From an uncultured bacterium (GTDB taxonomy: Bacteria; Patescibacteriota; Minisyncoccia; UBA6257; 2-01-FULL-56-20), in assembly GCA_963705915.1 (NCBI GenBank), contig OY970126.1:296306-360305 (forward strand): a stretch of 64,000 nucleotides of DNA. The letters run 5' to 3'. Numbering within the stretch: position 1 is the stretch's first letter; each line of letters begins with the position of its first letter. The notes under the pieces were generated by a model. The model did no database searches. It had not been told where the DNA came from and saw nothing but the letters and a program-made list of their open reading frames with translations. This document shows, in pieces, positions 3,974 through 63,051 of the stretch. A program made the translations under genes and the position numbers.

Positions 3974-6900
3974 TCACTGGCCCGTGAAGGTCACCGTACC
4001 GCTATACGTTCCACTCACGCTACTCGACGGGATGCCGAGGCCCCAATAGATCGTGCTCGAAACGAGCGAGGTCGACGTGGGTGCGGAAAGTGAAAACCCG
4101 GATACCGTCGTCGGACTGCTATTGAGAATCTGTTCACTGCCTCCAAATGTGAACGTTGACGTCGCATAATGCTGTGAACTTGTGGCGATACTGTTTGCGC
4201 CGGACGTGAGCGCCGTGCCAGACAACTGCAGTCCAATCGCGGAATTGCCGAAATTCTCGACGAAGGCTGTTTGATTGGTGGATCCGGTGTTTGTGTTTGG
4301 ACTCAGAGTGCCGTAATTAATCGACGCGCCGCCGCTTGCTCCTTCGAACGTGGCTATACCAGGATCGTTATTGTTCCCGCTTCCCACAAGTGTGCCCGTA
4401 CTCGATGCGTTGACCTGGATCGTTGAGACGATCTGCTGCATGAAGATTTGCTCGTCATCGTTATATACATCAGACGAGGTGGCTTCTGCAATCCAATTTC
4501 CCGTCGGCGTAAGATTGAGCGTATTCGGCGCCGCCGCAAAATCGCCGCCGATCATGAGTTCATTCGCCTGTGTTGTTGTTATTGCAGGGCTTGCCCACGG
4601 CGTGCCTTGCCTACAACAAGAACCCGTAGATGTTGCTTGGTCCAGGGGATTGGTCGTCGTAATCCCGGTATAGTGGGCGGCAATCATGGAAAAATCGGCT
4701 GCTAGGTCATCGCCGGGGATGGTCGAGGATACCGTCGTGACACCCGCAGCCACATTATACGCATACCAAAGGCTATAGCTCCAATGGTTACCGAAATTGA
4801 GTTGCTGATAGGCAAGATGATAGGTGTCCCCCTTATTGTCGGTCGGTGTACCGGGACTCGTATCGCCGTCGACGCCGGAATATACCTGGACGAGAACAAG
4901 CTCCCCTGCATTCGTAGAAGTCGCAAAGGTCACTGTGGAGCTCGTACATCCTGCCGAAGTAGTCCCGCATCTCTCAATCTCCACAAGTGACGGAGTCTGT
5001 GGACCCGTCGATGAAGCTGTGACGCCCAAAGCACTCAAGGTGAGCAACTCCTGGCCTGTCGAGTCTTGCGTGGCGGTTGCGTTGCTCGAATCGGTAAAAT
5101 CAACCGTGCTCATCCAATCTTGCCCCGCATACGTTCCTGAATCGGTCGGGTCGGCAAAATAATAGACGCCGAATGTGGTCGTTGCATTCACCGTATTCCC
5201 GGAACAGGTACTCGATGCGGTGAACGCCGTTGCTACGTAGCAATCTTCATTATTAGGACTCGAACTACATGTGGACGAGCCAACGCCTGAGCGATAAAGC
5301 ATGACCGTGGTTGTTCCACTGGTGATCGCGGTGCAACCATTCGTGTCAGTGATCGTCGTGCCAACACTCACGCTCGTCGTCACGTCCGGCGTGAGAACAA
5401 TGCTCGACCCCCCGTTCACGGTTGTGTTCACAACGGCAAGCGGCGGCGAGGACGATGGCCGCCAGCTTGTGGTTACGTCGCAAACACTGCAGCCAAAATT
5501 GAGATTGCCCGCGACCGTGCCCGACGCGATGCCCGAAAAAACTCCGGTACTGCTACTGATCGTGACGCCGCTAAAATTAATCCAGCCAACATTTTGGCCC
5601 CAAGCATAGCCCTGAAGGTCGCCGAGGCCGTCGTTTGTAACGCCGCTTCCGGAAGGTGCCAAGTTAATCCAGCCAAAATTCTGGCTCCAAGCGTAGCCGG
5701 TCAGCTTGCTGCTATTCACGACCATAGGCGCATCGGCGGTGTTGAAATTTGTCCATGACATTTTATCGCCCCAGGCGAAACCGGGAGCAAGAGTGGAAGA
5801 AGGCGTATAAGCAATGACTATGACGCCCTGGCCGCCACTGCCCCCATTGCCGTCATTCGAAGCTGACCCTCCTGCTCCTGCTCCGCCACCGCCATAGAGT
5901 CCGCCGCTTCCACCATTGGCGCCAGTAGCCGTCGTGACTTCTCCAGCGCTGCCACCACCGCCGCCTGAACCATGAATAGCGTCCCATTCGGTCCCTGCGC
6001 CGCCGTTGCCTCCGACGTTATCGGCAACAACTGCGTTTCCTCCGTTCGCGCCGCCGCCGCCACCGCCGTTTGAACCTGCGCTCCCAGGTGCGCCGTGGAG
6101 CCCACCTGTTCCCGATCCACCAGGGCCGGAATTGCCGCCGTCTCCTCCGGTTCCAGCAGTAGCCCTCCCTCCGTTCGCTCCATTATCAGCTCCTCCGCCG
6201 CCACCGCTAGCTTTATTACCTACAACGTTGCCGTCGTCACCTCCATTGCCTCCATTACCAAATTTCCCTGCCGCCCCGCCACCAGCACCACCTCCTGCAC
6301 CGTTCTGATTAGATGAACCATTCCCACCGGATCCTCCGGCAAAGCAAGTCGCACCAATGCTCGTTGATGAAGCCCCTCCACCCCCTCCAGTTCCGCTGCT
6401 AGCGTTACCGCCGCTTCCCCCGTTCGCCCCGACAGAAGAAGATGCAAGCGTAAGACCGTTAAACCAGGTTCCGCCACCATTCCCTCCTGCCTCTGCTGTC
6501 CCAGTAGCGCCGGCACCGGCGGCCCCAACACGAATATCGATAATTTCCCCCGGGGTCAGCGCGAGATTGGATATTTTACAATAGGCGCCGCCGCCGCCGC
6601 CATCTCCGGAGTCACCGCCGTCATTTATCCGATCTCCGCCACCTCCGCCGCCGATGACTTCGATCGTGTTGCTCGCAGAGTTCCAATCAGAAGGAACCGT
6701 CCATGTGGTCAAGGCCGTGTTTGTAATAAAGATTGGACCGGTTGTATCTCTGAATGTTGCGATGCCGGGAAAGTTGAGCGTGCCGCTGGCCGCCGACCCC
6801 GTACTCGAAACATTATTCTGAATAGATGAGACGATCTGATCTTCGTATGCCATCCCGTTGTTTTCAGCACTGTCCGTTGAAGTCGCTTCCAACGTCCAGT

Positions 6901-7993
6901 TTCCCGTTGCAGAAAGCGAACAGGCACCGGCGGTATTTATATAACACCAATCCTGGCCCACTATAACTTCGTTGGCATAGTTGGTCGTCACGGCACCGCT
7001 CGCCCAAGGTCTAGTTTGGGCTCCGGTTGCCAGCGTTGAAGTTGAAACATCGAGCCATGCTGACGTTGCCATGCCTGTATAATGCGCAGCAATCAACGAC
7101 GCTTTAGTTCCACTATCCCCCGTCCCTGGCGTCGAAGACACCGTGGTTACGCCTGCAGGAACATCCGCCGCGTACCACAACGAGTAGTCGTATTGAGATT
7201 CTATATTCGGAACATCGTAGACTTCGGTATAAATATCGCCCTTGTTGTCAGTGGGCGTACCGATTACAGTGCCACCGCCCCCTGTATAGGCCTCGAGGAC
7301 GATGAGCTCTCCGGCAGTTGTAGGGGCACCAAAGGTAATACTCGTGGTGCTATTTCCGGCTTCAGTCTCCACGAGTGTCGGCGCCCCGGTTGCGGCAGTC
7401 GTGTAGGTGGCATAAATAGTCGGAGCCTCCGCATAAAGACCCCCCCCACTTGGAGCAGTACTCGGAAAAGACGACGCCGTTCCTTGACAAGCGCCGTTCG
7501 CAGAACCACCACAATAAAAACTATTCGCTGGACTGCTGTTATTGTATTCATAATCCATCTGTCGGCCGTTGATGCTCCCACCGCTCGCCTCCGCAACCGC
7601 GAACCAATATTGTGTGCCCGAAGTAATGCTCGCGGTTAGATATGTAGTCACGTTTCCGTAGGTCGCGGGGAGCGGGCTGCCGTTCACGTTTGATGCTATG
7701 AGTGTGCCTGGCTGGCCACTGTTGTCAGTGTATAATGCCACGCCCATAACGTTGCCCGTTGCACCCAAATCGTCTTGTACGTTTTCAAAGGTGACTGAGG
7801 TGAGTGTTCCGTTATCACTTGGCACAGACTGTGCCTTGAAATACATGACGTATGAATTGCCGTCAACACCGGTTGTATTAGGCGTCTGATTGCCAAAACG
7901 CATGGCCTGTTGCGAGGCATACGTTGAAAGCGGCGAGAGAAAAAGACCAAATCCAAGGAGCCCAAAAAATAGTGCGGTAGTTTTTGAAGACAT
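3974..7993 (-). CDS. giant secreted protein with internal domain duplication and ~280-aa Gly-rich low-complexity core
   Basis: ORF track 1363 aa from 8065. The signal-peptide-like MSSKTTALFFGLLGFGLFLSPLSTYA begins at the internal Met (7993), which avoids overlap with the upstream gene. It has two ~125-aa paralogous blocks (TAGELIVLEAYTGGGG... and NAGELVLVQVYSGVDG...) and a GGxGG-rich core. Confidence 0.8.
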   Translation of the reverse strand: MSSKTTALFFGLLGFGLFLSPLSTYASQQAMRFGNQTPNTTGVDGNSYVMYFKAQSVPSDNGTLTSVTFENVQDDLGATGNVMGVALYTDNSGQPGTLIASNVNGSPLPATYGNVTTYLTASITSGTQYWFAVAEASGGSINGRQMDYEYNNSSPANSFYCGGSANGACQGTASSFPSTAPSGGGLYAEAPTIYATYTTAATGAPTLVETEAGNSTTSITFGAPTTAGELIVLEAYTGGGGTVIGTPTDNKGDIYTEVYDVPNIESQYDYSLWYAADVPAGVTTVSSTPGTGDSGTKASLIAAHYTGMATSAWLDVSTSTLATGAQTRPWASGAVTTNYANEVIVGQDWCYINTAGACSLSATGNWTLEATSTDSAENNGMAYEDQIVSSIQNNVSSTGSAASGTLNFPGIATFRDTTGPIFITNTALTTWTVPSDWNSASNTIEVIGGGGGGDRINDGGDSGDGGGGGAYCKISNLALTPGEIIDIRVGAAGAGATGTAEAGGNGGGTWFNGLTLASSSVGANGGSGGNASSGTGGGGGASSTSIGATCFAGGSGGNGSSNQNGAGGGAGGGAAGKFGNGGNGGDDGNVVGNKASGGGGGADNGANGGRATAGTGGDGGNSGPGGSGTGGLHGAPGSAGSNGGGGGGANGGNAVVADNVGGNGGAGTEWDAIHGSGGGGGSAGEVTTATGANGGSGGLYGGGGAGAGGSASNDGNGGSGGQGVIVIAYTPSSTLAPGFAWGDKMSWTNFNTADAPMVVNSSKLTGYAWSQNFGWINLAPSGSGVTNDGLGDLQGYAWGQNVGWINFSGVTISSSTGVFSGIASGTVAGNLNFGCSVCDVTTSWRPSSSPPLAVVNTTVNGGSSIVLTPDVTTSVSVGTTITDTNGCTAITSGTTTVMLYRSGVGSSTCSSSPNNEDCYVATAFTASSTCSGNTVNATTTFGVYYFADPTDSGTYAGQDWMSTVDFTDSSNATATQDSTGQELLTLSALGVTASSTGPQTPSLVEIERCGTTSAGCTSSTVTFATSTNAGELVLVQVYSGVDGDTSPGTPTDNKGDTYHLAYQQLNFGNHWSYSLWYAYNVAAGVTTVSSTIPGDDLAADFSMIAAHYTGITTTNPLDQATSTGSCCRQGTPWASPAITTTQANELMIGGDFAAAPNTLNLTPTGNWIAEATSSDVYNDDEQIFMQQIVSTIQVNASSTGTLVGSGNNNDPGIATFEGASGGASINYGTLSPNTNTGSTNQTAFVENFGNSAIGLQLSGTALTSGANSIATSSQHYATSTFTFGGSEQILNSSPTTVSGFSLSAPTSTSLVSSTIYWGLGIPSSSVSGTYSGTVTFTGQ

Positions 7994-8030
7994 AACGATC
8001 CGTACTTTAATAATACCAGAGAAACGAGCC

Positions 8031-10379
8031 TTACTTGCTCTTCCCTTTCGGAACCGAAAGCTCATTTTGGCTCGCGGGCGCGGAAGACGTTGCGTTCGAT
8101 GGGATTGGTTCCCCTGCCTGCAAGTTCGCGATCGCGGTCTCTATCTGCTGATTCCCAGGATTGAGCTGGAGTGCAAGATCGAATTGCTGAAGCGCTTGAG
8201 CATCAAGCCCTTGAGCCGCATCAACCACACCGAGATAATAGTGGGCATTCGCATAATCGGGCTCAAGAATCGCCGCCACCTGGAACTCCTGTTCAGCCTG
8301 TGCAATTTGGTTGCTTTGATAATCAAGGTAACCAAGCTCAAAAGCCACGCCCGGGTCGAGCGGGTTTTGCTGTTCGAGTTCTTGTACCCGTGAGATTGCC
8401 TGAGCGGTATTTCCCTCTTTTATATATAAATTAATGAGCGCGATGCGGGCATCGGTATAATCGTCTTTGAGCGACAGCGCTTTTTCAAAAAGCGCTTCTG
8501 CCTGGCTCCAGTCGGCGGTTTGGGAGGCGTTACTCAGGGAACCCGCGCTACCCGGTGCGAGACCGGCGGACTCCACAAAGACGCGGCCCATCGCGAGATC
8601 CCACTGAGGGTTCTGTGGATCCAAAGCTGCTGCCTGCCCGTAACTGTTTTCAGCAAGCGTGTCGGCTCCACCGACGAGCGGCATAATACTTTCATATACG
8701 GAGCCAAGATTTCCCCAATTCGCCGCGTCGCGGCCATTAAGCTGAGTGGCTCCTTGCGCGGCCTGCACGGCATTTGCGAGTACCGACGGCAATTCGGCGG
8801 TGCCCGTGGCAGCGTTTTCCGCTATGAGTTGTTGTGCTTCCTGGATTAAAAGTTGTGATGCGCCGCGAAGATACACGTCTGTACGATCAAGCGCAAGTGC
8901 CTGATTCATATCGGCAAAGGCCTGGCTCAGGTTGCCCGACGCTTCTTCGTCGCTCACGCGGCCAAAAAAGATGGCAGCCCCATACCGCTCACCGCCGGCA
9001 TACATCGTGGCGAGCGTCCCTGCGGCAATGATCATGAGTATGATCAATATGAAGAACGAGAAGCTGCGGGGCGCTCCATCAAACGAAATATTCTCCTCGG
9101 GAGCATCAACGAGGAATGCACCGATGAATAGAAAGAAAAGAATACCTTCGGCGAAAAACAGCGGATACAAGAAAAGCGCCAATCCGAGGAACGCCGCCGC
9201 AGAGAGCAGCATCGCGCGATCCGGCGAAAACGATTGGATATCGAGCAACCACCATCCAACAAGACTCAGCAATCCGAGGAACAGGAGCCAGGCAACCAGC
9301 CCCCCCGTGGCGAGCAACGTGAGCACGAAATCGTATCCCTGCATTGGCGTTGTATTCCATAAGCTTGTTTCATTCACACTGACCGGCTTCCATAATGCAA
9401 AATCGAGATAGAATGTCGACGGCCCCGTGCCAACAAGCGATCGCCAACCAAGAAGCGACGGACCGACAGCGTCAAACGTTGCACCGATACTCGGACGGAC
9501 ATCCGGCGGCGCTTGATGAAGCCACGGCAAGCGCGGACCGACGAGCGACAAGAATAACGCCACAACGACAATGATAAATGCATATCGAAATCCCTGGCTC
9601 GTATCCGACGCCGACCGCAGCGCCGCGAGAATAATCGTGAAGAGCGCTACCGCGAGCCATAATAATTGATAATTGATGAGGAGGAGGCCGAGTGCTGCGG
9701 CGCAGGCTATCACCACAAAACTCCATCGCTCAAAACGGGAAAAGGGCTTAGTGCCAGCAACGCCAAGCGCAGCGAGTACGGCAACGAGCAATATCCCCCA
9801 TGCGGCAATCGAGCCGATGGGATTCTGTAACACAGATGATCCGGCTCCAAAAAGCTGCACAAGTCCGATGATTGAAGCGACGAGCAATCCAACACCTGCA
9901 CACAACCCAACGGTCTTCATATCGCGCGGGCGCAAAAAATAATACGTGAGATAACAAATCACGGCGCAGATGATAAGCGCGAGTACTGAATCAGGTTGAT
10001 CAAGCGACCCATAAAAACTTTGTGCGGGAGCGACCGAAGTCCACGCGCTCACAATCTCCGCAAGAATGAAGAGTCCGAGCGTTGGGAAAAACCATGACCG
10101 TGGATATGATAGTGTGCGCTCCTCAAAAACCGCGCCAAGAAAACAAACAAAGGCGGCAGCGGCGAGAAAACCGATCACCATGATCTTGTTAATCCCCACC
10201 GGATCAACCGTTAACGGTAAATAGAAAACGGGCACAAGCAGCGCAATTGCAAAAATGCAAAAACGTCCGATCGATCGAAATGCACGCGCCCGCTCACGGG
10301 GTCGCGGTATATCGCTCGGCGCTGGCGGCGGACCTTCGTAATAGGTTTCCTCGATGATAACGGTTTCTGAAGTGCGCAT
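8031..10379 (-). CDS. O-antigen ligase/Wzy-like polytopic membrane protein fused to C-terminal TPR repeats
   Basis: ORF track 782 aa. It has more than 10 predicted TM helices, followed by a TPR-like repeat region (AEALFEKALSLKDDYTDARIALINLYIKEGNTAQAI... YANAHYYLGVVDAAQGLDAQALQQFDLALQLNPGN). Confidence 0.75.
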   Translation of the reverse strand: MRTSETVIIEETYYEGPPPAPSDIPRPRERARAFRSIGRFCIFAIALLVPVFYLPLTVDPVGINKIMVIGFLAAAAFVCFLGAVFEERTLSYPRSWFFPTLGLFILAEIVSAWTSVAPAQSFYGSLDQPDSVLALIICAVICYLTYYFLRPRDMKTVGLCAGVGLLVASIIGLVQLFGAGSSVLQNPIGSIAAWGILLVAVLAALGVAGTKPFSRFERWSFVVIACAAALGLLLINYQLLWLAVALFTIILAALRSASDTSQGFRYAFIIVVVALFLSLVGPRLPWLHQAPPDVRPSIGATFDAVGPSLLGWRSLVGTGPSTFYLDFALWKPVSVNETSLWNTTPMQGYDFVLTLLATGGLVAWLLFLGLLSLVGWWLLDIQSFSPDRAMLLSAAAFLGLALFLYPLFFAEGILFFLFIGAFLVDAPEENISFDGAPRSFSFFILIILMIIAAGTLATMYAGGERYGAAIFFGRVSDEEASGNLSQAFADMNQALALDRTDVYLRGASQLLIQEAQQLIAENAATGTAELPSVLANAVQAAQGATQLNGRDAANWGNLGSVYESIMPLVGGADTLAENSYGQAAALDPQNPQWDLAMGRVFVESAGLAPGSAGSLSNASQTADWSQAEALFEKALSLKDDYTDARIALINLYIKEGNTAQAISRVQELEQQNPLDPGVAFELGYLDYQSNQIAQAEQEFQVAAILEPDYANAHYYLGVVDAAQGLDAQALQQFDLALQLNPGNQQIETAIANLQAGEPIPSNATSSAPASQNELSVPKGKSK

Positions 10380-56628: not shown

Positions 56629-57660
56629 TTAACCGTGCCGAACTTCAAGGACGTCGCCGTCTTGGACGACGTAGTCTTTTCCTTCAACGCGAAGCCACCC
56701 CTTTTGCTTCGCGGCAGCCCAGTTCCCCGCAATGAGCAGCTTATCACACGCAACGACTTCAAGACGAATAAACTTTTTCTCAAAATCGGTATGAATGACA
56801 CCCGCTGCTTGCGGCGCCTTCGTTCCCTGCTCAATCGTCCATGCACGTGTCTCATCCTCGCCCGTCGTGAAGAAACTGATGAGGTTCAGCGTGGCATAGG
56901 CTTCGCGTACGAGCTCGGGAACTGATTGCGCCGACGAGAGGTCAATTACAATATGATGCGCGCCAAGCGACGCGAGCTTCTCGGTGAGCGCCTGCGGCAC
57001 GTCGGCCGGTGTTCCATTTAAAAGATAAATCTGCCGCTTGAGGGTGAGAAGGTTCACATCCTTCAGTCGTCCGGTAGTTGCAATCTCGTGCGCAATTTCG
57101 TTTGCGAGCGCGACGTCGGCAACCGGCAGTCGGCCGGCCTCAAGGCACGCCTTCAATCGTCCAAGCAATTCTTTGTCCTGTATCGCTTCTTTTTTTCCTG
57201 TGCGCGCTTCGGCTTCGGCCTTCGCAAATCGTTTTTCGACAAGCTCGAGGTCCTTCAAAATCAATTCCGCGTTGATAATCTCGAGGTCGCGCAACGGATC
57301 GACAGAATTTTCAACGTGGATAATTTCCGGATTCTGGAAGACGCGCAAAACGACCACGATCGCTTGCGTCTCCTTGATGTGGCCAAGAAATTGATTGCCG
57401 AGGCCTTCACCCTTATTGGCACCCTTCACGAGCCCTGCAATATCATAGAATTCAACAACCGCCGGGATTTTTTTCTTGGACTTGCTCATCAGAGCCAGCT
57501 TCTCGCCCCGGTCGTCGGGAACGGAAACAATGCCAACATTTGGATCAATCGTGGCAAAAGGATAATTTGCGATCGTAATATCCTGCTTGGTGAGAATTTT
57601 AAAAAGCGTTGATTTGCCAACGTTGGGGAGACCGACGATGCCAAGAGAAATTTTTGCCAT
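56629..57660 (-). CDS. ychF: redox-regulated ATPase YchF (Obg-family GTPase)
   Basis: ORF track 343 aa. GIVGLPNVGKSTLF P-loop and C-terminal TGS domain. Confidence 0.95.
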   Translation of the reverse strand: MAKISLGIVGLPNVGKSTLFKILTKQDITIANYPFATIDPNVGIVSVPDDRGEKLALMSKSKKKIPAVVEFYDIAGLVKGANKGEGLGNQFLGHIKETQAIVVVLRVFQNPEIIHVENSVDPLRDLEIINAELILKDLELVEKRFAKAEAEARTGKKEAIQDKELLGRLKACLEAGRLPVADVALANEIAHEIATTGRLKDVNLLTLKRQIYLLNGTPADVPQALTEKLASLGAHHIVIDLSSAQSVPELVREAYATLNLISFFTTGEDETRAWTIEQGTKAPQAAGVIHTDFEKKFIRLEVVACDKLLIAGNWAAAKQKGWLRVEGKDYVVQDGDVLEVRHG

Positions 57661-57670
57661 ATGGGTTGAA

Positions 57671-58651
57671 CTATATTACATCTTCATCAAAATTCAAAGT
57701 TAAAATCTCAGCGGCAATCTTTTTTGCATTCCCGTGTTTCAACATGCTGAGATATGATGTCACGCGTCCAGGTTTTGGATATTCTCCAATTCGCTTGAGC
57801 GCACGTCGTTTTGTTGCTGGGCGAAGCACTCTGTGATCGGGAAAACAAACCCAACCAAGAAAATCCACCCCCGACGCCCATGTCTTAATAGACACTTTGC
57901 GTGGATGCAGTGATAGCTTCAATGCCCGATCCAGAAAATCCGCGATATGTGGCATAAGGGCCTCGAGTTCAGTTTTGTCATCACCGAGGAACACGAAGTC
58001 GTCGGCGTAGCGAATATAATATTTCTTACGCAAATCATGCTTCACGTATCGATCAAACTCATTCACGTAAACGTTCACCAAAAGTTGCGATGTCAGATTG
58101 CCGAGGGGCAATCCCCGCTTTGGACTGCTTTCAAAACTATCGATCACTTTTCCGAGAAGCCACAGCGTACCCCTTTCGGGAATATGCCTCTCGATTACTT
58201 GCATCAATGACGAATGATCAACTGATGCGAAAAATTTTCGTATGTCGCATTTTAGAACCCAACACGTTCGAGTATTATTTTTTGACACCTTGCGAGCAAA
58301 ATCATAAAAGCGCCGCACGGCGCGATGGACACCCTTATTGTTACGGCAAGAATAGATATCGTGTACGAATTTCTTATCAAAATGTGGATATAGGATGCGA
58401 TAGATAGCGTGATGAAGGACTCTATCGCGAACGGTAGCTTTGTGGATGCTGCGTGGCTTTGGATCGCTGATGCCGAAAGCGTGATAAGCCCCGTGCTCGT
58501 AGATTTTATTTTTCAGGTCTTCGTGGAGTGCATATAAATTACTGGAAAGGTTGAGCGAAAACTCCGCCACGTCTTTCTTGGCCTTTTTGCCGCGCACGAA
58601 TTCCTGCCAAGCGGCACAGAGGTTTTCAAATGATATAATAGTTTCAAACAT
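57671..58651 (-). CDS. diversity-generating retroelement (DGR) reverse transcriptase
   Basis: ORF track ORF from 58720; the likely start is the internal Met at 58651 (MFETIISFENL...). RT motifs include YADDFVFLGDD and the DGR-RT-specific LPLGNLTSQLLVNVY (I/LGxxxSQ). It is collinear with the Bordetella phage BPP-1 bRT (EPKPR..., SDF.KFF.S.D, GI.FLG...H..LR). Confidence 0.85.
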   Translation of the reverse strand: MFETIISFENLCAAWQEFVRGKKAKKDVAEFSLNLSSNLYALHEDLKNKIYEHGAYHAFGISDPKPRSIHKATVRDRVLHHAIYRILYPHFDKKFVHDIYSCRNNKGVHRAVRRFYDFARKVSKNNTRTCWVLKCDIRKFFASVDHSSLMQVIERHIPERGTLWLLGKVIDSFESSPKRGLPLGNLTSQLLVNVYVNEFDRYVKHDLRKKYYIRYADDFVFLGDDKTELEALMPHIADFLDRALKLSLHPRKVSIKTWASGVDFLGWVCFPDHRVLRPATKRRALKRIGEYPKPGRVTSYLSMLKHGNAKKIAAEILTLNFDEDVI

Positions 58652-58667
58652 ATGAACGCAGGAAAAA

Positions 58668-59063
58668 ATGACAAGAATAGGGGGGGGGCAAATTTTACCA
58701 TCAACTCTCGTCAAGCTCAAAACCGCCTATAAGAATTGGCTCGCACTTTTCCATCATTTTCCAAAAGTGGAACGTTTCGGTGTCGGTCAGAAAATCGAGC
58801 GATCGTTTCTTGATGCACTTGAACTGATTTTTTTGTCGGGCTTTGCGCCCACCGAACAGAAACTCCCAATCCTGACAAAAGCAGTGACGCGGCTGGATGT
58901 TTTGAAATTCTTTTTGCAGATCGCTTGGGAAAATAAACTGCTTACAACCGAGCACTATTCCACTTTGCTCGCCAATATCGAGGAGGTCGGCAGAATGCTC
59001 TATGGCTGGAAAAGGGGCCTTGAAAGTAAAACTCCCGCGAGAAAAGCGGGAGAACCACAGTAG
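58668..59063 (+). CDS. avd: Avd-like four-helix-bundle protein (DGR accessory variability determinant), encoded antisense to RT/TR; contains G9 tract at codons 5-7
   Basis: ORF track 131 aa: ...LKTAYKNWLALFHHFPKVERFGVGQKIERSFLDALELIF...VLKFFLQIAWENKLLTTEHYSTLLANIEEVGRMLYGWKRGL. This matches the FPK.E+FG...EIG+ML.G pattern of TIGR02436/Avd proteins. An AGGA RBS lies 6 nt upstream. There is a GGGGGGGGG run at 58680..58688. Confidence 0.6.
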   Translation: MTRIGGGQILPSTLVKLKTAYKNWLALFHHFPKVERFGVGQKIERSFLDALELIFLSGFAPTEQKLPILTKAVTRLDVLKFFLQIAWENKLLTTEHYSTLLANIEEVGRMLYGWKRGLESKTPARKAGEPQ

Positions 59064-59171
59064 TTGCGAGAGAAGACGGGGTTGTCGTCGTTCCACCTGT
59101 TGTCGTCCAAGGCGTTGCATTCGCGTTCCAGCCGTCGTCGTTCCAGTTGACGTTGACCGTGCGAAGCACGC
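59064..59171 (-). repeat. DGR template repeat (TR)
   Basis: A 108-nt near-copy of 59527..59635. Read on the minus strand, every substitution maps to an A in this copy (A>G or A>T at about 14 sites, including the AAC codons), plus one 1-nt indel. Confidence 0.75.
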
Positions 59172-59488
59172 ACCACTCTCGTATATGCACCCATCCGTGC
59201 CACCACCCCTCGACGCATCTTGAGGTTGTATCGTATTCGGGACGTAGAAGTCCACCGAGTACATATACCAATTCCTGTTATATTTTTGGAAATGAGTTCC
59301 TGCACTCCCGCGCAAGACGTGTCCGACGCAGCTCTCGCAAAGAACCATCTCAAAGTCGTGACGAAAAAGCCATAGCCGTTCCGTATCGCACGATTTCAAA
59401 TTCAGTATAACAATTTATGTAAAGTATAAAAAATAATGACCCCTCCTGCGTTGCTTTGCAGAAAGGGGTCAAGGTGTCGAGGTTCCAA

Positions 59489-59505
59489 GGGGTCATTGAG
59501 ACCCC
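59489..59505 (-). other. GC hairpin (GGGGUC-ucaau-GACCCC) ~20 nt downstream of VR 3' end, as expected for DGR target-site cruciform/IMH-proximal structure
   Basis: Read directly. A second 7-bp stem (gacccct...aggggtc) follows at 59440-59473. Confidence 0.45.
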
Positions 59506-59519
59506 AGGGTTCCTAGTTG

Positions 59520-60164
59520 TCAGGAATTGCGAGAGAAGACGGGGTTGCCGTCGTTCCACCTGACGCCGTCCAAGGCGACGGCACCCGCGAACCAGCCGTC
59601 GTCGTTCCAGCCGACGTCGACCGCGCGAAGCACGCCTTCGCGATCGCGAACGTAAAAGATGTTTGCCCACCCATTATTGAGCAGGACACCTTCGCCGCCA
59701 TTCGCCTGACGCTCCATGAGTCGCCAGATTTCCGCGAGGGTAACTTCCGCAGCAGTTTCGCCACCAAGATCGGCGATGATCTCGCTGTCGTTCGCGCTCT
59801 GGGTTAGCGTGAGCGGTCGAAGCTCCCCTTCGGGAAAATCCTCCTCAACCTTGCCGCCGAACCAGCTCTTGAAGTTCGAGCCGTGTTCGACCATCTTGAC
59901 GCCAGATTTCTTGTTGAAGAAAGTTTTGTCCGCATTGAACGGGAGGCTCTCGGTCGGCGGGGGTGTCGGGATCGGTCGGAGAATTTTATAGATACGCTTC
60001 TCAACAGGCCCCTTCGGACGGTTCCGAATGGCCGCAACCATTGTTGCGATTGCGTCCTTCGGTTGTTGAAACACGAACTGCCCATCCGAGTTTGAAAGTG
60101 TCTTGAAGCAGGCTTGATGGGTCACGAGTTGCCCCATCATTGCAGGGATCTGTTGTTCAGTCAT
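59520..60164 (-). CDS. DGR target protein (214 aa, no signal peptide) with C-terminal VR encoding a CLec-like ...GWNDDGW...RWNDGN... ligand-binding tip
   Basis: ORF track ORF from 60272. The internal Met at 60164 is preceded by a strong AAGGAG RBS. The VR lies at the C-terminus. Confidence 0.75.
   Translation of the reverse strand: MTEQQIPAMMGQLVTHQACFKTLSNSDGQFVFQQPKDAIATMVAAIRNRPKGPVEKRIYKILRPIPTPPPTESLPFNADKTFFNKKSGVKMVEHGSNFKSWFGGKVEEDFPEGELRPLTLTQSANDSEIIADLGGETAAEVTLAEIWRLMERQANGGEGVLLNNGWANIFYVRDREGVLRAVDVGWNDDGWFAGAVALDGVRWNDGNPVFSRNS
59527..59635 (-). repeat. DGR variable repeat (VR) in the last ~38 codons of the target gene
   Basis: Pairs with the TR. It ends 5 nt before the target stop codon and encodes ...RAVDVGWNDDGWFAGAVALDGVRWNDGNPVFSRNS. 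Confidence 0.75.
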
Positions 60165-60366
60165 GGTATTTCTCCTTGTGACCGTTTCTACAGTACTCTG
60201 CTGTTGGATTTGGCGTATTGGTTTCGCCACAGCCCACAAAGGCTTACTCAAAGCCACTCTGGGCTGTAGCAAAATCTCCCTCTATCAATGTACTATGCCC
60301 ACATTATATACCATAATAACCCACTCTGTCAAGATCGCCATTCTTATCTCGTACTTACGCATGTCC

Positions 60367-60636
60367 TTATGAATGCGTCTCCACCGCCTCAAATGTTTCC
60401 GAAACTGCCTGGGTGGTATTCACAACTTTCACTTTTTCGTTTCCATATTTAGTTCTGAGCACAGTCATCAATTCGTCCGCGTATGATGGCGAGAGCACTT
60501 CAACACCGGTGAAATCCAAAACCACATCCTCCGTTTTGGCGGTCCCATTGACGATCTGCTGAATACGCAAAGCCGCCTCCCGTGCTACAGGACGGCCGTT
60601 GAGTACGGTATTAAATTTTGACATTTGGACGGTCAT
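60367..60636 (-). CDS. STAS-like (DUF4325-type) small protein, putative anti-sigma-antagonist-like partner of the upstream ATPase
   Basis: ORF track 89 aa: ...EDVVLDFTGVEVLSPSYADELMTVLRTKYG... resembles STAS/SpoIIAA-like folds. Starts 12 nt below the ATPase stop. Confidence 0.55.
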   Translation of the reverse strand: MTVQMSKFNTVLNGRPVAREAALRIQQIVNGTAKTEDVVLDFTGVEVLSPSYADELMTVLRTKYGNEKVKVVNTTQAVSETFEAVETHS

Positions 60637-60648
60637 TTGAGTGATTAC

Positions 60649-61473
60649 TTATTGCTTATATTTTACCACAAAAGATGCGAGAGTGCCGACGATAGGAAAT
60701 ACGGAGTGAGCCTTCTGTCCGTTCCCATCTACGACAACGAGACCAGATCCCGAATGGATACGTACTATACCATCAAATTTATTGATTGTCCAATCTTGGA
60801 TTACTTTCAATCCGTTGCCGCGCGACTCCCCCACTCTTCCCGTCACACCACTCATCCCTAGCACAATTGCATCCTCATCGCTCGCAATAGATTTATTCGC
60901 GGCACGCAGTGATCCACTGAAGCCGATTCCCGGATCGGCGACAACGATTTCAATACGATGCTTGTTCGGATTATGTTGCGCAAGAATGATCGCGCCACGA
61001 ATGCTCGATGGCCACTGTCCATCGTTGTGATCAAAAACGTTATTGCCGAGTTCGCCAACGAGCGCCGTCGCCCGCGCTTCATCCAATTCGTTCAATCCGA
61101 AATGCCTGAACATCCTCCGTATCTTTGACGAAAGTTGGGCCTCAAGCGCATCGCGGAATTCGCAATGTAGGATCTCACACACATCATCGCTATCGTGCTC
61201 GTTGATCTCTAAAGCGCGGAGGGGCCCCAAGAAAGAATTATACGTAAACTCCATTAAAATCTTATTAAAATGCATCCGCTTTAGGTACGTAAGCATGTCA
61301 GCATCCTTCGGCAGGACAAGGTTCTTGTCTGCCTGATCCTTGAATTCAATCCCCTTGAGGCATGCCAAACCAATGGCCCACGGGTCGAACCATGTTGCCT
61401 TTTCAAAATTAATCGTATGGCCCGGAAAAATTTCCTGATACCTCTTGTATATCGTGTCGAAGGTAATATCCAT
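60649..61473 (-). CDS. GHKL-superfamily ATPase (RsbW/SpoIIAB-like kinase domain) with ~130-aa N-terminal extension
   Basis: ORF track 274 aa. N-box ELGNNVFDHN, G1 VVADPGIGF, G2 RGNGL. Confidence 0.65.
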   Translation of the reverse strand: MDITFDTIYKRYQEIFPGHTINFEKATWFDPWAIGLACLKGIEFKDQADKNLVLPKDADMLTYLKRMHFNKILMEFTYNSFLGPLRALEINEHDSDDVCEILHCEFRDALEAQLSSKIRRMFRHFGLNELDEARATALVGELGNNVFDHNDGQWPSSIRGAIILAQHNPNKHRIEIVVADPGIGFSGSLRAANKSIASDEDAIVLGMSGVTGRVGESRGNGLKVIQDWTINKFDGIVRIHSGSGLVVVDGNGQKAHSVFPIVGTLASFVVKYKQ

Positions 61474-61737
61474 TGGCTCTATTTTAACACAGTGCCGTTC
61501 GGCGCTGGCATGGATCGTATAATTCTTCCTTTCTCATCACGACTCACGATCACCCGCGCGTAGCGCAGAAATGGCAGCTTTATTCGAAATTCAAAGGGAA
61601 TTACTGGTTTTTTGTTGTTATCGATTGTGTTCTCACGATGCCGATGGAGAGTTTCATAAGTAACAGATCTGAATCCAAGGAGTATTATATAAGGAAGCGG
61701 TCGAAAAGCAACCACACCCCGTGATATAAAAACTATT

Positions 61738-63051
61738 ATGAAAAAAATATTCTTATGTGCAGCGCTCTCCGCCTTCCTCGCGACGACGGCCGTGGGAGCA
61801 CACGTTTTTGCGCAGACAGCATCGGCGGGCGCGTCTCTCGGTTCGTCGATTTCGAGCGGTGCCATGCCACCGATATCGGCTTCGGGCAGCGGTTTTGTGC
61901 AGTTTAATAATCTGACGGTGCAAGCCGTTTCGGGAGCGTCGGCGCCGGCCACAATCACGGCGTCAGCGCAATTCTATCCTCAACTCCCACCGGGAGTCGG
62001 CGCCACCGTGCCGCTCAACGGCTCGACGGGCGTCTCCGTTGGCACGAGCGGCGCAGCAGGAAGTGCTGCAAGTGCGTGCTTAAAATATAATTCAGAAAAT
62101 GCTTCGACGGGCCTTGTGATCCCCTGCCCAATGACACCGCCAGTAAATCCGGGCGGGCCTTTGATCCCCGTGAGCAGCAGTTCGGCGAGCGCAGCAACAG
62201 GTGCAAGCATGCCAAACATCGCCGTTGCAGCTCCCTATCAAATCGATATTTCGACCAACACGGAGCTTATGTTCCGCGACCGGACGCCAGCAACCCTCGC
62301 CGACTTCGCGCAAGGTGACACTATCAACGTCTTCGGCTACTACAATGCCGACGGCAGCATCCAAGCCTATCTCGTACGCGATATCTCAAAACCGGTCGAG
62401 ACGCAGACAATGCAGCTCGATAACGTAACGCTCGCCTCACTCTCGGCTTCAAACGTACCCGCCACGCTCGAGGTGACGCAAGCGCAAGGCGCTCCGTGCC
62501 TTGGCTTCAGTGGAAACACCTCAGCCCAGATTGCTTGCCCGATGGGAGTCATGGCCTTCCCGGGGAATCCTGGCACGACAAGCGCAACCGCCCCAACCCC
62601 GAGTGGTGCAACACCGAACTTTGTACTCCTTCGAAAATATGTAGTGAACGTCGACAGCCAGACGATCATTCTCGACCGGAACCGGACGCAACTCTCGCTC
62701 GCGAGTCTCAATCCGGGCGATACGTTGAACGTGTACGGCGAGACAAGCGATAACGGCCAAACGATCGACGCCGATATCGTCCGCGACCTTTCCATCCCGC
62801 CCGCACCAAGTTCGGTGAACGGGACCGTTACCCAGGTGAACGCCGATGGGTCATTCGTTATACAGACAGATAACGGCCAGACGCTTACCGTGCAGAATCC
62901 AGTGAGCGTGGGAGAAACCGTGACACTCCAGGGCATGATTAACAGTGCTCAAAATCTCATCACTGAAATCTCGCGCCTCATGATCGCGAGCAGCACAGCG
63001 CCAATGCCCGTTCCACCCCAAAACGGACTTGAAATCCCAGCAAAGCGCTGA
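61738..63051 (+). CDS. secreted protein with repeated beta-barrel (DUF5666-like) modules
   Basis: ORF track 437 aa. Signal peptide MKKIFLCAALSAFLATTAVGAHVFA. Repeated D(T)INV(F/Y)G...DG(S/Q)...A..VRD(I/L)S motifs. Confidence 0.8.
   Translation: MKKIFLCAALSAFLATTAVGAHVFAQTASAGASLGSSISSGAMPPISASGSGFVQFNNLTVQAVSGASAPATITASAQFYPQLPPGVGATVPLNGSTGVSVGTSGAAGSAASACLKYNSENASTGLVIPCPMTPPVNPGGPLIPVSSSSASAATGASMPNIAVAAPYQIDISTNTELMFRDRTPATLADFAQGDTINVFGYYNADGSIQAYLVRDISKPVETQTMQLDNVTLASLSASNVPATLEVTQAQGAPCLGFSGNTSAQIACPMGVMAFPGNPGTTSATAPTPSGATPNFVLLRKYVVNVDSQTIILDRNRTQLSLASLNPGDTLNVYGETSDNGQTIDADIVRDLSIPPAPSSVNGTVTQVNADGSFVIQTDNGQTLTVQNPVSVGETVTLQGMINSAQNLITEISRLMIASSTAPMPVPPQNGLEIPAKR

Follow-up and report, generated by a model that had tools for sequence, protein, structure and literature searches.

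A VapK/VapS-like kinase and STAS gene pair beside a DGR in a patescibacterial genome

The gene pair and the neighbouring DGR

The window, i.e., the whole stretch of 64,000 nucleotides that was analyzed, carries two minus-strand open reading frames (ORFs), hereafter genes A and B, with a DGR downstream of them. The features are listed below with the evidence for each.

60649..61473, minus strand: gene A, a 274-aa VapK-like protein with a predicted STAS-like sensor domain and a predicted GHKL Ser/Thr kinase/ATPase domain (ORF)
61090..61473, minus strand: residues 1-128 of A, degenerate STAS-like domain (hhalign to the VapK STAS domain, Foldseek hint, Pfam match of a phage homolog)
60652..61089, minus strand: residues 129-274 of A, GHKL (Bergerat-fold) ATP-binding/kinase domain (invariant motifs, fold)
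60637..60648, minus strand: A-B spacer of 12 nt, from the stop of A to the start of B (sequence)
60367..60636, minus strand: gene B, an 89-aa DUF4325 STAS-like protein and predicted kinase substrate (ORF, Pfam)
60303..60332, minus strand: perfect sigma-70 consensus promoter, TTGACA-18-TATAAT, a boundary marker outside the module (12/12 consensus matches)
59521-59635: DGR VR, which ends the 250-aa target (TR/VR comparison)
59058-59171: DGR TR
58668-59063, plus strand: bAvd
57671-58720, minus strand: DGR RT

The sequence-only reading had placed the two ORFs at these positions and quoted several motifs from A, all of which were confirmed. The short spacer implied co-transcription of A and B. In related loci, the two genes all shared the same orientation and were separated by gaps of 5-30 nt or joined by short overlaps. 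An indexed search recovered 191 homologs of A of ~272 aa, and an exhaustive search recovered 2725 clusters at E<=1e-3; the 22 that also reached E<=1e-30 were closest to the A family. Because homologs were abundant and a B homolog lay directly downstream wherever the sequence sufficed, the pair was not a chance pattern of ORFs.

The DGR downstream of the pair is real: read on the minus strand, the TR and the VR differ chiefly at adenines of the TR. Within the window, the gene next after B is the DGR target. As described earlier, the pair is co-oriented with the target and upstream of it, whereas the gap that had been given as ~200 nt measures 95 nt to a TTG start or about 230 nt to the called ATG start. 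As the consensus promoter lies between the B stop and the target, the target can be transcribed independently of A and B.

Domains of the two proteins

Judged from its sequence and predicted structure, A is a two-domain protein in which a degenerate STAS-like N-terminal domain is packed against a GHKL domain that is predicted to be competent for ATP binding. The GHKL motifs are ELGNNVFDHN (residues 141-150), DPGIGF (180-185) and RGNGL (218-222). They provide an N-box E141-x3-N145-x3-H149, a G1 box D180-x-G-x-G184 and a G2 box G209..R218-G-N-G-L222. In 23 homologs, down to 45% identity, E141, N144, N145, D148, H149, D180, G182, G184, R218, G219 and G221 were invariant. Since Pfam HATPase_c and HATPase_c_2 matched A at sub-threshold level (E ~4e-3), its identification as a GHKL protein rests on the invariant motifs and the fold. 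The AlphaFold2 model of A (pLDDT 88, pTM 0.89) matched histidine-kinase and Hsp90 ATP-binding domains in Foldseek (E 2e-4, probability 0.99), and the matches to HK853, CpxA, PhoQ and Hsp90 N-domains ranged from E 2e-4 to 1e-2. Searches of the PDB with the single sequence of A and with its profile returned nothing meaningful, and NCBIfam gave no useful match.

The closest homologs of known function were found in two systems that were first described in 2026 as DNA-damage sensors. VapKSC consists of the kinase VapK, the STAS antitoxin VapS and the PIN toxin VapC, and VapK is a Ser kinase activated by ssDNA (Chambers et al., EMBO J 2026; PMC13373217). CapK/CapS consists of an ssDNA-activated kinase and a STAS-wHTH repressor, with CBASS, Bub or Thoeris operons located downstream (PMC13373217). 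In the STAS domains of both kinases, an aromatic residue stacks against ssDNA, namely, F54 of VapK and W68 of CapK (PMC13373217). When the A family profile (A1) was aligned with E. coli VapK by hhalign, a probability of 92.6% and an E-value of 4.7e-7 were obtained over 224 columns, and the alignment spanned both domains (A 22-270 against VapK 48-288). In phmmer searches of a 269-sequence set, VapK and CapK matched intermediate members of the A superfamily at 1e-17 and 1.5e-8, respectively, and the matches extended to close A homologs at 1e-6. The direct profile match between A and CapK, for which CapK residues 1-253 were used, was weak (probability 19.5%, starting at CapK residue 126), and thus no membership of A in CapK is claimed. 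The N-box of A resembles those of VapK (EIYANSFEH) and CapK (ELIGNVRDH). Moreover, A has a basic hairpin loop at residues 168-174, equivalent to K237/K239 of CapK, which holds one to three Lys or Arg residues in 23/23 homologs.

The ~130-aa N-terminal domain of A, which had been regarded as novel, is instead a degenerate STAS-like domain of the kind present in VapK and CapK. It carries the motif I-D-L-x-x-x-x-[WF]-x-D-P-W with invariant P31, W32 and C38. Its aromatic residue, W28, falls opposite F54 of VapK in the hhalign alignment, and this position is Trp or Phe in 21 of the 23 homologs. The AlphaFold2 model of the domain alone had a pLDDT of 85. Its Foldseek matches, which included 1thn_B and 1h4x_A, were not significant individually (best E 2.2), and STAS domains made up 14 of the 17 listed; this result was used as a consistent hint only. 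In addition, gp32 of Gordonia phage Phishy, a distant homolog of A, passed the Pfam STAS gathering score over residues 19-85.

B is a bare DUF4325 STAS domain. It matched Pfam DUF4325 with an E-value of 9.3e-10 (38.5 bits against a gathering score of 23), while STAS_2 reached an E-value of 0.084 only. In the Pfam check suggested for the two proteins, B scored above the threshold and A below it; together with the invariant motifs and the matched GHKL fold, these results supported the earlier description of A as a GHKL protein of the RsbW/SpoIIAB type whose partner is STAS-like. VapS belongs to the same Pfam family as B (DUF4325, E 2.7e-17). The B family profile aligned with VapS (E 1.3e-4, probability 53%) and with the STAS domain of CapS (E 2.9e-4, probability 41%) at modest levels in hhalign, and the best natural match of B in a profile search of the PDB was VapS (9z7o_A), a real but weak match. 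The single-sequence PDB matches of B to designed "Pizza" and armadillo repeat proteins were rejected as artefactual summed matches.

Residues 38-50 of B read VVLDFTGVEVLSP. Four residues, P50, S51, D54 and E55, do not vary within the B family, and position 49 holds either Ser or Thr throughout. S51 and S/T49, which flank P50, are the predicted phospho-acceptors. In hhalign, S51 lies opposite S54, the phospho-acceptor of CapS, within the motif S-[FY]-x-x-E. In an ungapped alignment, S48 of VapS falls opposite P50, and the register of the phospho-acceptor is accordingly ambiguous. In the literature searched, DUF4325 received incidental mentions only, and the conflict-system papers of the Aravind laboratory did not cover the pair.

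Conservation, surroundings and mobility of the pair

A and B were adjacent in 18 of 19 genome loci, the 19th of which ends at a contig edge, and also in all further loci examined. The neighborhood comparison proposed for the pair thus showed it kept together in every related locus with enough sequence. By all-against-all clustering of the neighbors, no conserved third gene was found; the largest additional cluster was an ABC-F ATPase, present at variable positions in five loci. Likewise, no conserved PIN toxin, HTH domain, sigma factor or PP2C phosphatase was found beside the pair. PIN_3 occurred in one of ~25 loci, two genes away, and NYN genes occurred in one locus, according to the precomputed Pfam hits of the neighbors. 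These hits included no sigma factor or PP2C in any annotated locus, in agreement with the earlier remark on their absence near the pair. The genes 3' of the pair were unrelated between loci (LigA, MurA, a HAD hydrolase and uncharacterized genes), and the next gene was convergent in at least 5 of 17 loci. LigA was found beside the pair in two loci, which was judged not significant given the number of genes able to recur.

The pair is mobile. In one locus, a 1.57-kb insert carries A and B alone, and the 3' end of an NYN gene stands on both sides of it as a direct repeat (300 nt, 97% identical). The closest homolog of A (85% identity) adjoins a phage integrase, an HTH_3 repressor-like gene and a PG_binding_1 protein, and a DGR is absent there. 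Other contexts contained a type I/IIG restriction-modification system with a serine recombinase, GmrSD and RelA_SpoT; an integrase with SIR2_2 and SMC/AAA_15; NYN with a type ISP restriction-modification system and SocA_Panacea; and, in one case, AbiJ_NTD4. Type IIG/ISP restriction-modification systems were present in 3/17 distinct loci.

A-B pairs are common in ultra-small Patescibacteria, and distant pairs were found in Gordonia, Bacteroides and Methanothermobacter phages. These are gp32/gp33 of Phishy, an "ATP-binding protein" followed by DUF4325 in Bacteroides phage BF1-TP2, and ORFB/ORFC in the IFa fragment of Methanothermobacter prophage psiM100, which are like MTH315/MTH316. By tblastn, A matched the phage pairs at E 4e-7 to 1e-4 over ~80% of its length with 22-26% identity. 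ORFC of psiM100 is a DUF4325 protein, and Phishy gp32 matches Pfam STAS and HATPase_c. The Phishy pair sits between structural genes and the integrase, and a comparable pair is annotated in a Francisella prophage; such prophage sites often carry extra, non-essential genes. The frequent occurrence of the pair in restriction-modification islands, integrase-flanked elements and prophage positions suggests an anti-phage or stress-response role. However, ordinary housekeeping genes made up about half of the contexts, which keeps a defence role tentative.

Recurrence beside DGRs or in defence islands had been proposed as a check, along with a possible coupling of the pair to the diversified target. 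Some loci did lie in restriction-modification or defence contexts, but no RT, Avd or target homolog was found in the 35 other A loci, and neither A nor B was found in 80 loci (540 kb) whose DGR RTs are close relatives (57-75% identical). If the pair were a DGR accessory or regulator, it would gate expression or mutagenesis of the target, for instance by sensing a cDNA or ssDNA intermediate. An ssDNA-sensing kinase beside a cDNA-producing element is conceptually attractive, the pair adjoins the target in the same orientation in this genome, and both the A-B segment and the RT/Avd segment have a slightly lower GC content (0.45-0.49) than their flanks. The reciprocal surveys largely refute this explanation, and the target's own consensus promoter, the lack of a DNA-binding domain in B and the DGR-free locus of the nearest A homolog also stand against it, leaving it highly improbable. 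The juxtaposition is a coincidence of this genome and the DGR is unrelated to the pair. A tempting connection of a DGR to a signalling module, for which the comparison gave no support, is thereby removed.

Proposed switch and comparison with known systems

The best reading of the pair is a minimal, effector-less variant of the known kinase/STAS switches, with an output that is not encoded beside it. We propose, with a probability of roughly 0.55, that the pair is a self-contained and horizontally mobile switch of the VapK/VapS type, related to CapK/CapS, in which A is the kinase, B is its substrate and a partner encoded elsewhere is released. The earlier proposal of a nucleotide-dependent switch was right as a general idea, but the classical sigma-factor form of partner switching was not borne out; the closest characterized relatives are VapK/VapS and CapK/CapS (PMC13373217).

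In the proposed mechanism, A would respond to stress or infection by binding a signal, most likely a single-stranded nucleic acid, in the groove that separates its STAS-like domain from its GHKL domain, using W28 and the basic loop at residues 168-174. The activated kinase would then phosphorylate B where the second STAS helix begins, on Ser51 (or S/T49). We infer that phosphorylation alters the binding partner of B, which is the weakest step of the scheme. Because B has neither a wHTH nor the VapS helix and no PIN gene is linked, the output would lie with A itself, with a conserved factor of the host or with a partner whose gene is located elsewhere. The last of these, through release of the partner, is considered most likely, albeit speculatively.

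It is awkward, however, for a mobile cassette to need a specific partner elsewhere, and this favors a version in which the kinase itself is the effector. The pair would then be a toxin-antitoxin or abortive-infection module in which B serves as a pseudosubstrate or antitoxin consumed by phosphorylation, while A, on sensing ssDNA, once free of B or when B synthesis stops, acts on a conserved protein of the host or of a phage by phosphorylating or sequestering it. Such an arrangement would fit the strict two-gene conservation across bacteria, archaea and phages with no linked effector, the mobility of the cassette and the positions of the Phishy and Francisella pairs. It would also explain how a cassette with neither a nuclease nor a DNA-binding domain works once transferred among CPR bacteria, phages of Actinobacteria and of Bacteroides, and prophages of archaea. 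A precedent is SpoIIAB, a single protein that both binds its target and phosphorylates its STAS partner. If this explanation is true, the two genes by themselves would make up a full system of defence or addiction, and one of a new type. Nevertheless, the sequence suggests no target, and in both characterized relatives, VapKSC and CapK/CapS, the output is carried by the STAS protein and not by the kinase (PMC13373217). We therefore regard an effector role of A as rather unlikely and retain the VapK/VapS-type switch.

The CapK/CapS and VapK/VapS modules carry an effector, either a repressor domain controlling CBASS/Bub or a PIN toxin (PMC13373217). At the locus described here, their sensor-substrate core stands free as a cassette of two genes, and such cassettes range over Patescibacteria, temperate phages of Actinobacteria and of Bacteroides, and the prophage of a methanogen. 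Should the minimal pair work alone, the question becomes what a phosphorylated bare STAS domain controls; the answer could be a new output for kinase/STAS signalling in organisms with very few regulators.

With SpoIIAB/SpoIIAA and RsbW/RsbV, the pair shares the GHKL Ser kinase N-box E-x3-N-x3-H and a single-domain STAS partner with a conserved Ser, and some A homologs are annotated as "anti-sigma regulatory factor" by one source. A classical switch of this kind, acting on a sigma or transcription factor encoded elsewhere, is nonetheless improbable. A has an extra STAS-like domain at its N-terminus, which the ~145-aa anti-sigma kinases are not known to have. B belongs to DUF4325 and not to the STAS/STAS_2 families of RsbV and SpoIIAA. 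Moreover, a sigma factor or a PP2C/SpoIIE phosphatase lay beside the pair in none of the annotated loci, and the pair is horizontally mobile and also carried by phages.

The model of a DISARM DrmA variant (PADLOC model PDLC02567, 1750 positions) matched A with its positions 67-264 and B with its positions 316-380, both weakly (E 2e-5 and 6e-3). As a single model matched A and then B, a STAS-GHKL-STAS module, to judge from this model, also exists as an N-terminal fusion to a DISARM protein. In contrast, A and B are free-standing and have no helicase or DUF1998. The phage and prophage pairs have the same two-gene architecture as A-B and no linked effector. In psiM100, unlike at the A-B locus, the inserted fragment that holds the pair also contains ORFD, a third gene of 492 aa for which Pfam gave no match.

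With CapK/CapS, the pair shares the gene order and the kinase-then-STAS logic, and A shares the N-box ELxxNVxDH and the motif YLxRxxF. Both pairs are sometimes directly downstream of a restriction-modification system, as are 20% of capKS loci (PMC13373217). Unlike CapK, which has an N-terminal HTH, A opens with the STAS-like domain and has no HTH Pfam match. B is an 89-aa STAS core alone and, as it has no wHTH, cannot be a DNA-binding repressor of the CapS type. While CapK/CapS is directly followed, in the same orientation, by an immune operon under its control, the genes downstream of A-B are not consistently immune, and in several loci they are convergent.

In the case of VapKSC, the hosts are Proteobacteria, whereas A-B is hosted by Patescibacteria/CPR, and the third gene, encoding the PIN toxin VapC, is absent from A-B by the Pfam annotation of the neighbors. 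The C-terminal helix of VapS (94-116), which is required for VapC inhibition (PMC13373217), is also absent from B, since B and its homologs end ~15-25 residues past the STAS core, whereas VapS continues well past that point in the alignment. On the other hand, VapK (302 aa) and A (274 aa) both combine a STAS-like domain with a GHKL kinase domain and are homologous over their full length, with an identity of only ~24%. In both systems, the DUF4325 STAS gene lies immediately 3' of the kinase gene, an aromatic residue occupies the predicted ssDNA-stacking position, and a conserved Ser/Thr opens the second STAS helix. The closest characterized relatives of A-B are thus the VapK/VapS and CapK/CapS damage-sensing modules.

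Architecture and strict pairing of A and B

The gene pair consists of A, which encodes a predicted GHKL/STAS-like kinase, and B, which encodes its STAS-like partner, with 12 nt between them.

60649..61473, minus strand: gene A, ORF of 274 aa
60367..60636, minus strand: gene B, ORF of 89 aa, Pfam DUF4325

All motifs quoted in the sequence-only reading were found in these ORFs. The STAS-like identity that it gave to B was confirmed in the Pfam search, in which DUF4325 ("STAS-like") exceeded the gathering score (E 9.3e-10). In the case of A, HATPase_c and HATPase_c_2 were matched below threshold only (E ~4e-3). Across 23 aligned homologs, the most divergent at 45% identity, the N-box (E141, N144, N145, D148, H149), the G1 box (D180, G182, G184), and the G2 region (R218, G219, G221) were invariant. 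The AlphaFold2 model of A was confident (pLDDT 88, pTM 0.89), and its top Foldseek matches in the PDB were the catalytic domains of HK853, CpxA, and PhoQ and the N-domains of Hsp90/TRAP1 (E 2e-4 to 1e-2). Thus, despite the sub-threshold Pfam scores, the invariant motifs, the model, and the structural matches establish a Bergerat-fold ATP-binding domain in A, as expected of the GHKL-type core first proposed. In an exhaustive search, the A superfamily comprised 2725 clusters at E<=1e-3, 433 at E<=1e-10, and 22 at E<=1e-30.

The N-domain of A (~130 aa) had been regarded as novel, which did not hold. It contains the STAS signature I-D-L-x-x-x-x-[WF]-x-D-P-W and aligns with the STAS-like region of the characterised kinase VapK. 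Residues 1-128 modelled alone gave a pLDDT of 85; Foldseek returned no statistically significant match for this model, and 14 of the 17 matches listed were STAS domains (prestin, MlaB, and SpoIIAA among them), none individually significant. Gp32 of Gordonia phage Phishy, a distant A homolog, scored above the Pfam STAS threshold in the corresponding region.

The 19 genome loci with A homologs that were inspected were all from Patescibacteria-type MAGs, though a few records are titled as other taxa. B was directly downstream of A in 18 of them, and the 19th was cut at the contig end. B was also present on every further contig inspected, on one of which it was simply uncalled as a gene. The A-B pair is therefore a real and well-conserved feature, and its adjacency is retained across related loci. 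Clustering of all neighbouring genes at the A loci revealed no third conserved gene. As the gene after B was convergent in at least five loci, the pair is its own operon.

Gene context of the A-B pair
One locus: type I/IIG restriction-modification directly upstream of the pair; serine recombinase, GmrSD, and RelA_SpoT nearby
One locus: integrase, SIR2_2, and SMC/AAA_15 ATPase
One locus: NYN genes, type ISP enzyme, and SocA_Panacea
One locus: PIN_3 two genes from the pair
Also seen: AbiJ_NTD4
Also seen: SLFN_AlbA_2
Also seen: housekeeping genes (LigA, MurA, glycogen-metabolism genes, GreA/ABC transporter genes)

Type IIG/ISP restriction-modification genes occurred at 3 of 17 distinct loci. LigA, the NAD-dependent DNA ligase, was directly beside the pair twice, once upstream with a 28-nt gap and once downstream with a 59-nt gap (L025:4333-6381 and L013:11162-13201). 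This adjacency is suggestive in view of the ssDNA and DNA-damage theme, yet roughly matches the chance expectation, given the number of genes able to recur.

Independence from the neighbouring DGR

The diversity-generating retroelement (DGR) downstream of the pair is real, with a reverse transcriptase (RT), bAvd, a template repeat (TR), and a variable repeat (VR) in a target gene.

57671-60272: DGR region
58668-59063, strand opposite to RT, TR, and target: bAvd gene
59058-59171: TR
59521-59635: VR
60303-60332, minus strand: sigma-70 consensus promoter TTGACA-18-TATAAT (12/12 match), between the stop codon of B and the start of the target gene

Coupling of A-B to the DGR target had been suggested and was contradicted by surveys in both directions. 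At the other 35 A loci, no homologs of the RT, Avd, or target of the window were found, the sole exception (L020) being the same genome as the window; at these loci, homologous pairs thus did not recur next to related DGR genes. Conversely, 80 loci from metagenomes, together spanning 540 kb, with RTs 57-75% identical to that of the window included 70 with Avd and 18 with a target homolog, and none had A or B at E<=0.01. Since both surveys were negative and the target has its own promoter, the adjacency is specific to this genome, and the A-B pair is not connected to the DGR.

The promoter matches the consensus unusually well for a gene that encodes a variable protein. The window bAvd is divergent from RT and ends at TR. 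Avd was opposite in strand to RT in all 70 related loci with an Avd homolog (59 upstream/divergent), indicating that this orientation is a conserved trait of the DGR lineage.

Within the 57.4-61.6 kb segment (window 57400-61600), GC was 0.45-0.49 over the RT/Avd genes and the A-B pair, compared with 0.55-0.59 in the genes on either side (61.9-64 kb and 54.4-55.9 kb); it was higher (0.58) at the end of the target that bears VR. The lower GC is compatible with two independent side-by-side acquisitions or with one composite island, and does not establish a functional link. Divergent from A and adjoining the DGR target region is a gene (61738-63051, plus strand) whose 437-aa product is rich in Ala, Ser, and Pro, has an N-terminus resembling a signal peptide, faintly matches DUF5666, and is probably a surface or secreted protein.

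Mobility, phage carriage, and fusion

The pair is mobile. At locus L002, a 1.57-kb insert contains only A-B and is flanked by a 300-nt direct repeat, 97% identical (copies at 4887-5186 and 6753-7052; also in L009, L021, and L022), which copies the 3' end of an NYN-domain gene. These bounding repeats are an insertion signature, and the arrangement looks like a site-specific cassette insertion. A second repeat of 30 nt lies just inside each insert end, and a promoter-like box, TGGTATAAT, occurs in two copies, one upstream of the NYN gene and one upstream of A.

Next to the closest A homolog (85% identity) is a phage integrase; the same element encodes an HTH_3 repressor-like protein and a PG_binding_1 protein. 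Distant pairs were found in Gordonia phage Phishy (between tail genes and integrase), Bacteroides phage BF1-TP2, and "inserted fragment IFa" of prophage psiM100 (L031, psiM100 record 6786-9578). In a Francisella prophage table, the CI repressor and the integrase flank a 293-aa hypothetical protein followed by a DUF4325 protein. IFa, which distinguishes psiM100 from phage psiM2, encodes A-like ORFB, DUF4325 ORFC, and ORFD, which is 492 aa long and matches no Pfam family; the record notes chromosomal homologs MTH315 and MTH316. IFa would represent the module in an archaeal setting, perhaps extended by a third component. Moreover, one PADLOC DrmA model (PDLC02567, 1750 positions) matched A at 67-264 and then B at 316-380. 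These serial matches indicate that the module is also fused to a DISARM component, and the model implies predicted DrmA variants in which a STAS-GHKL-STAS module is fused at the N-terminus.

A classical sigma-factor partner switch is suggested by the kinase/STAS-like pairing, but is unlikely, because neither a sigma factor nor PP2C is linked to the pair at any annotated locus (none nearby was noted in the sequence-only reading either), A has an extra domain, B belongs to DUF4325 and not STAS/STAS_2, and phages carry the pair.

Proposed mechanism and relation to VapKSC and CapKS

CapK is an HTH-STAS-GHKL kinase paired with the STAS-wHTH repressor CapS, whereas VapK is a STAS-GHKL kinase with the STAS antitoxin VapS and the PIN toxin VapC (Chambers et al., EMBO J 2026, PMC13373217). 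In both systems, ssDNA switches on the kinase; phosphorylation of the STAS partner at a conserved Ser then frees it from DNA or toxin (PMC13373217). VapK, VapS, CapK (residues 1-253), and CapS sequences were taken from the supplementary model files of that paper.

With hhalign, the A-family profile aligned with VapK over both domains (A 22-270 vs VapK 48-288; probability 92.6%, E 4.7e-7) and weakly with CapK residues 1-253 (19.5%). VapK and CapK each directly matched intermediate members of the A superfamily, which joins the three families. A W28 was opposite VapK F54 (hhalign) and CapK W68 (motif alignment), the position for which stacking on ssDNA has been demonstrated or predicted (PMC13373217), and was aromatic in 21 of 23 homologs. 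The hairpin loop matching CapK K237/K239 kept 1-3 basic residues in all 23.

VapS itself belongs strongly to DUF4325 (E 2.7e-17), and the only natural protein that the B-family profile detected in the PDB was VapS (9z7o_A, E 0.024). By hhalign, the B family matched VapS (E 1.3e-4) and the CapS STAS domain (E 2.9e-4). Across 21 sequences, K7, F8, L12, N13, R15, E20, Q27, I28, L40, D41, P50, S51, D54, and E55 of B were invariant, and position 49 was always S or T. S51 was opposite CapS S54 (hhalign; motif S-[FY]-x-x-E), and [ST]49-P50 resembles VapS S48-P49. The predicted phospho-acceptor could be the hydroxyl of either S51 or S/T49, with S51 preferred here.

By analogy with these homologs, a nucleic-acid or damage cue would activate A, which would phosphorylate B at one of these residues. 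Unlike CapS, B has no wHTH, and unlike VapS, it has no inhibitory helix; no PIN toxin is linked to the pair. The output would therefore lie outside B or in the kinase itself. As the main rival, it may be speculated that A itself is the toxin and B a pseudosubstrate antitoxin. Our choice, likewise speculative, is an output through a conserved host factor or through a partner whose gene lies elsewhere.

The pair shares with VapKSC the DUF4325 partner (VapS and B) and the two-domain kinase alignment (VapK and A). It falls outside both systems as they were defined and represents a minimal variant of the recently described CapKS/VapKSC kind, one that lacks an effector.
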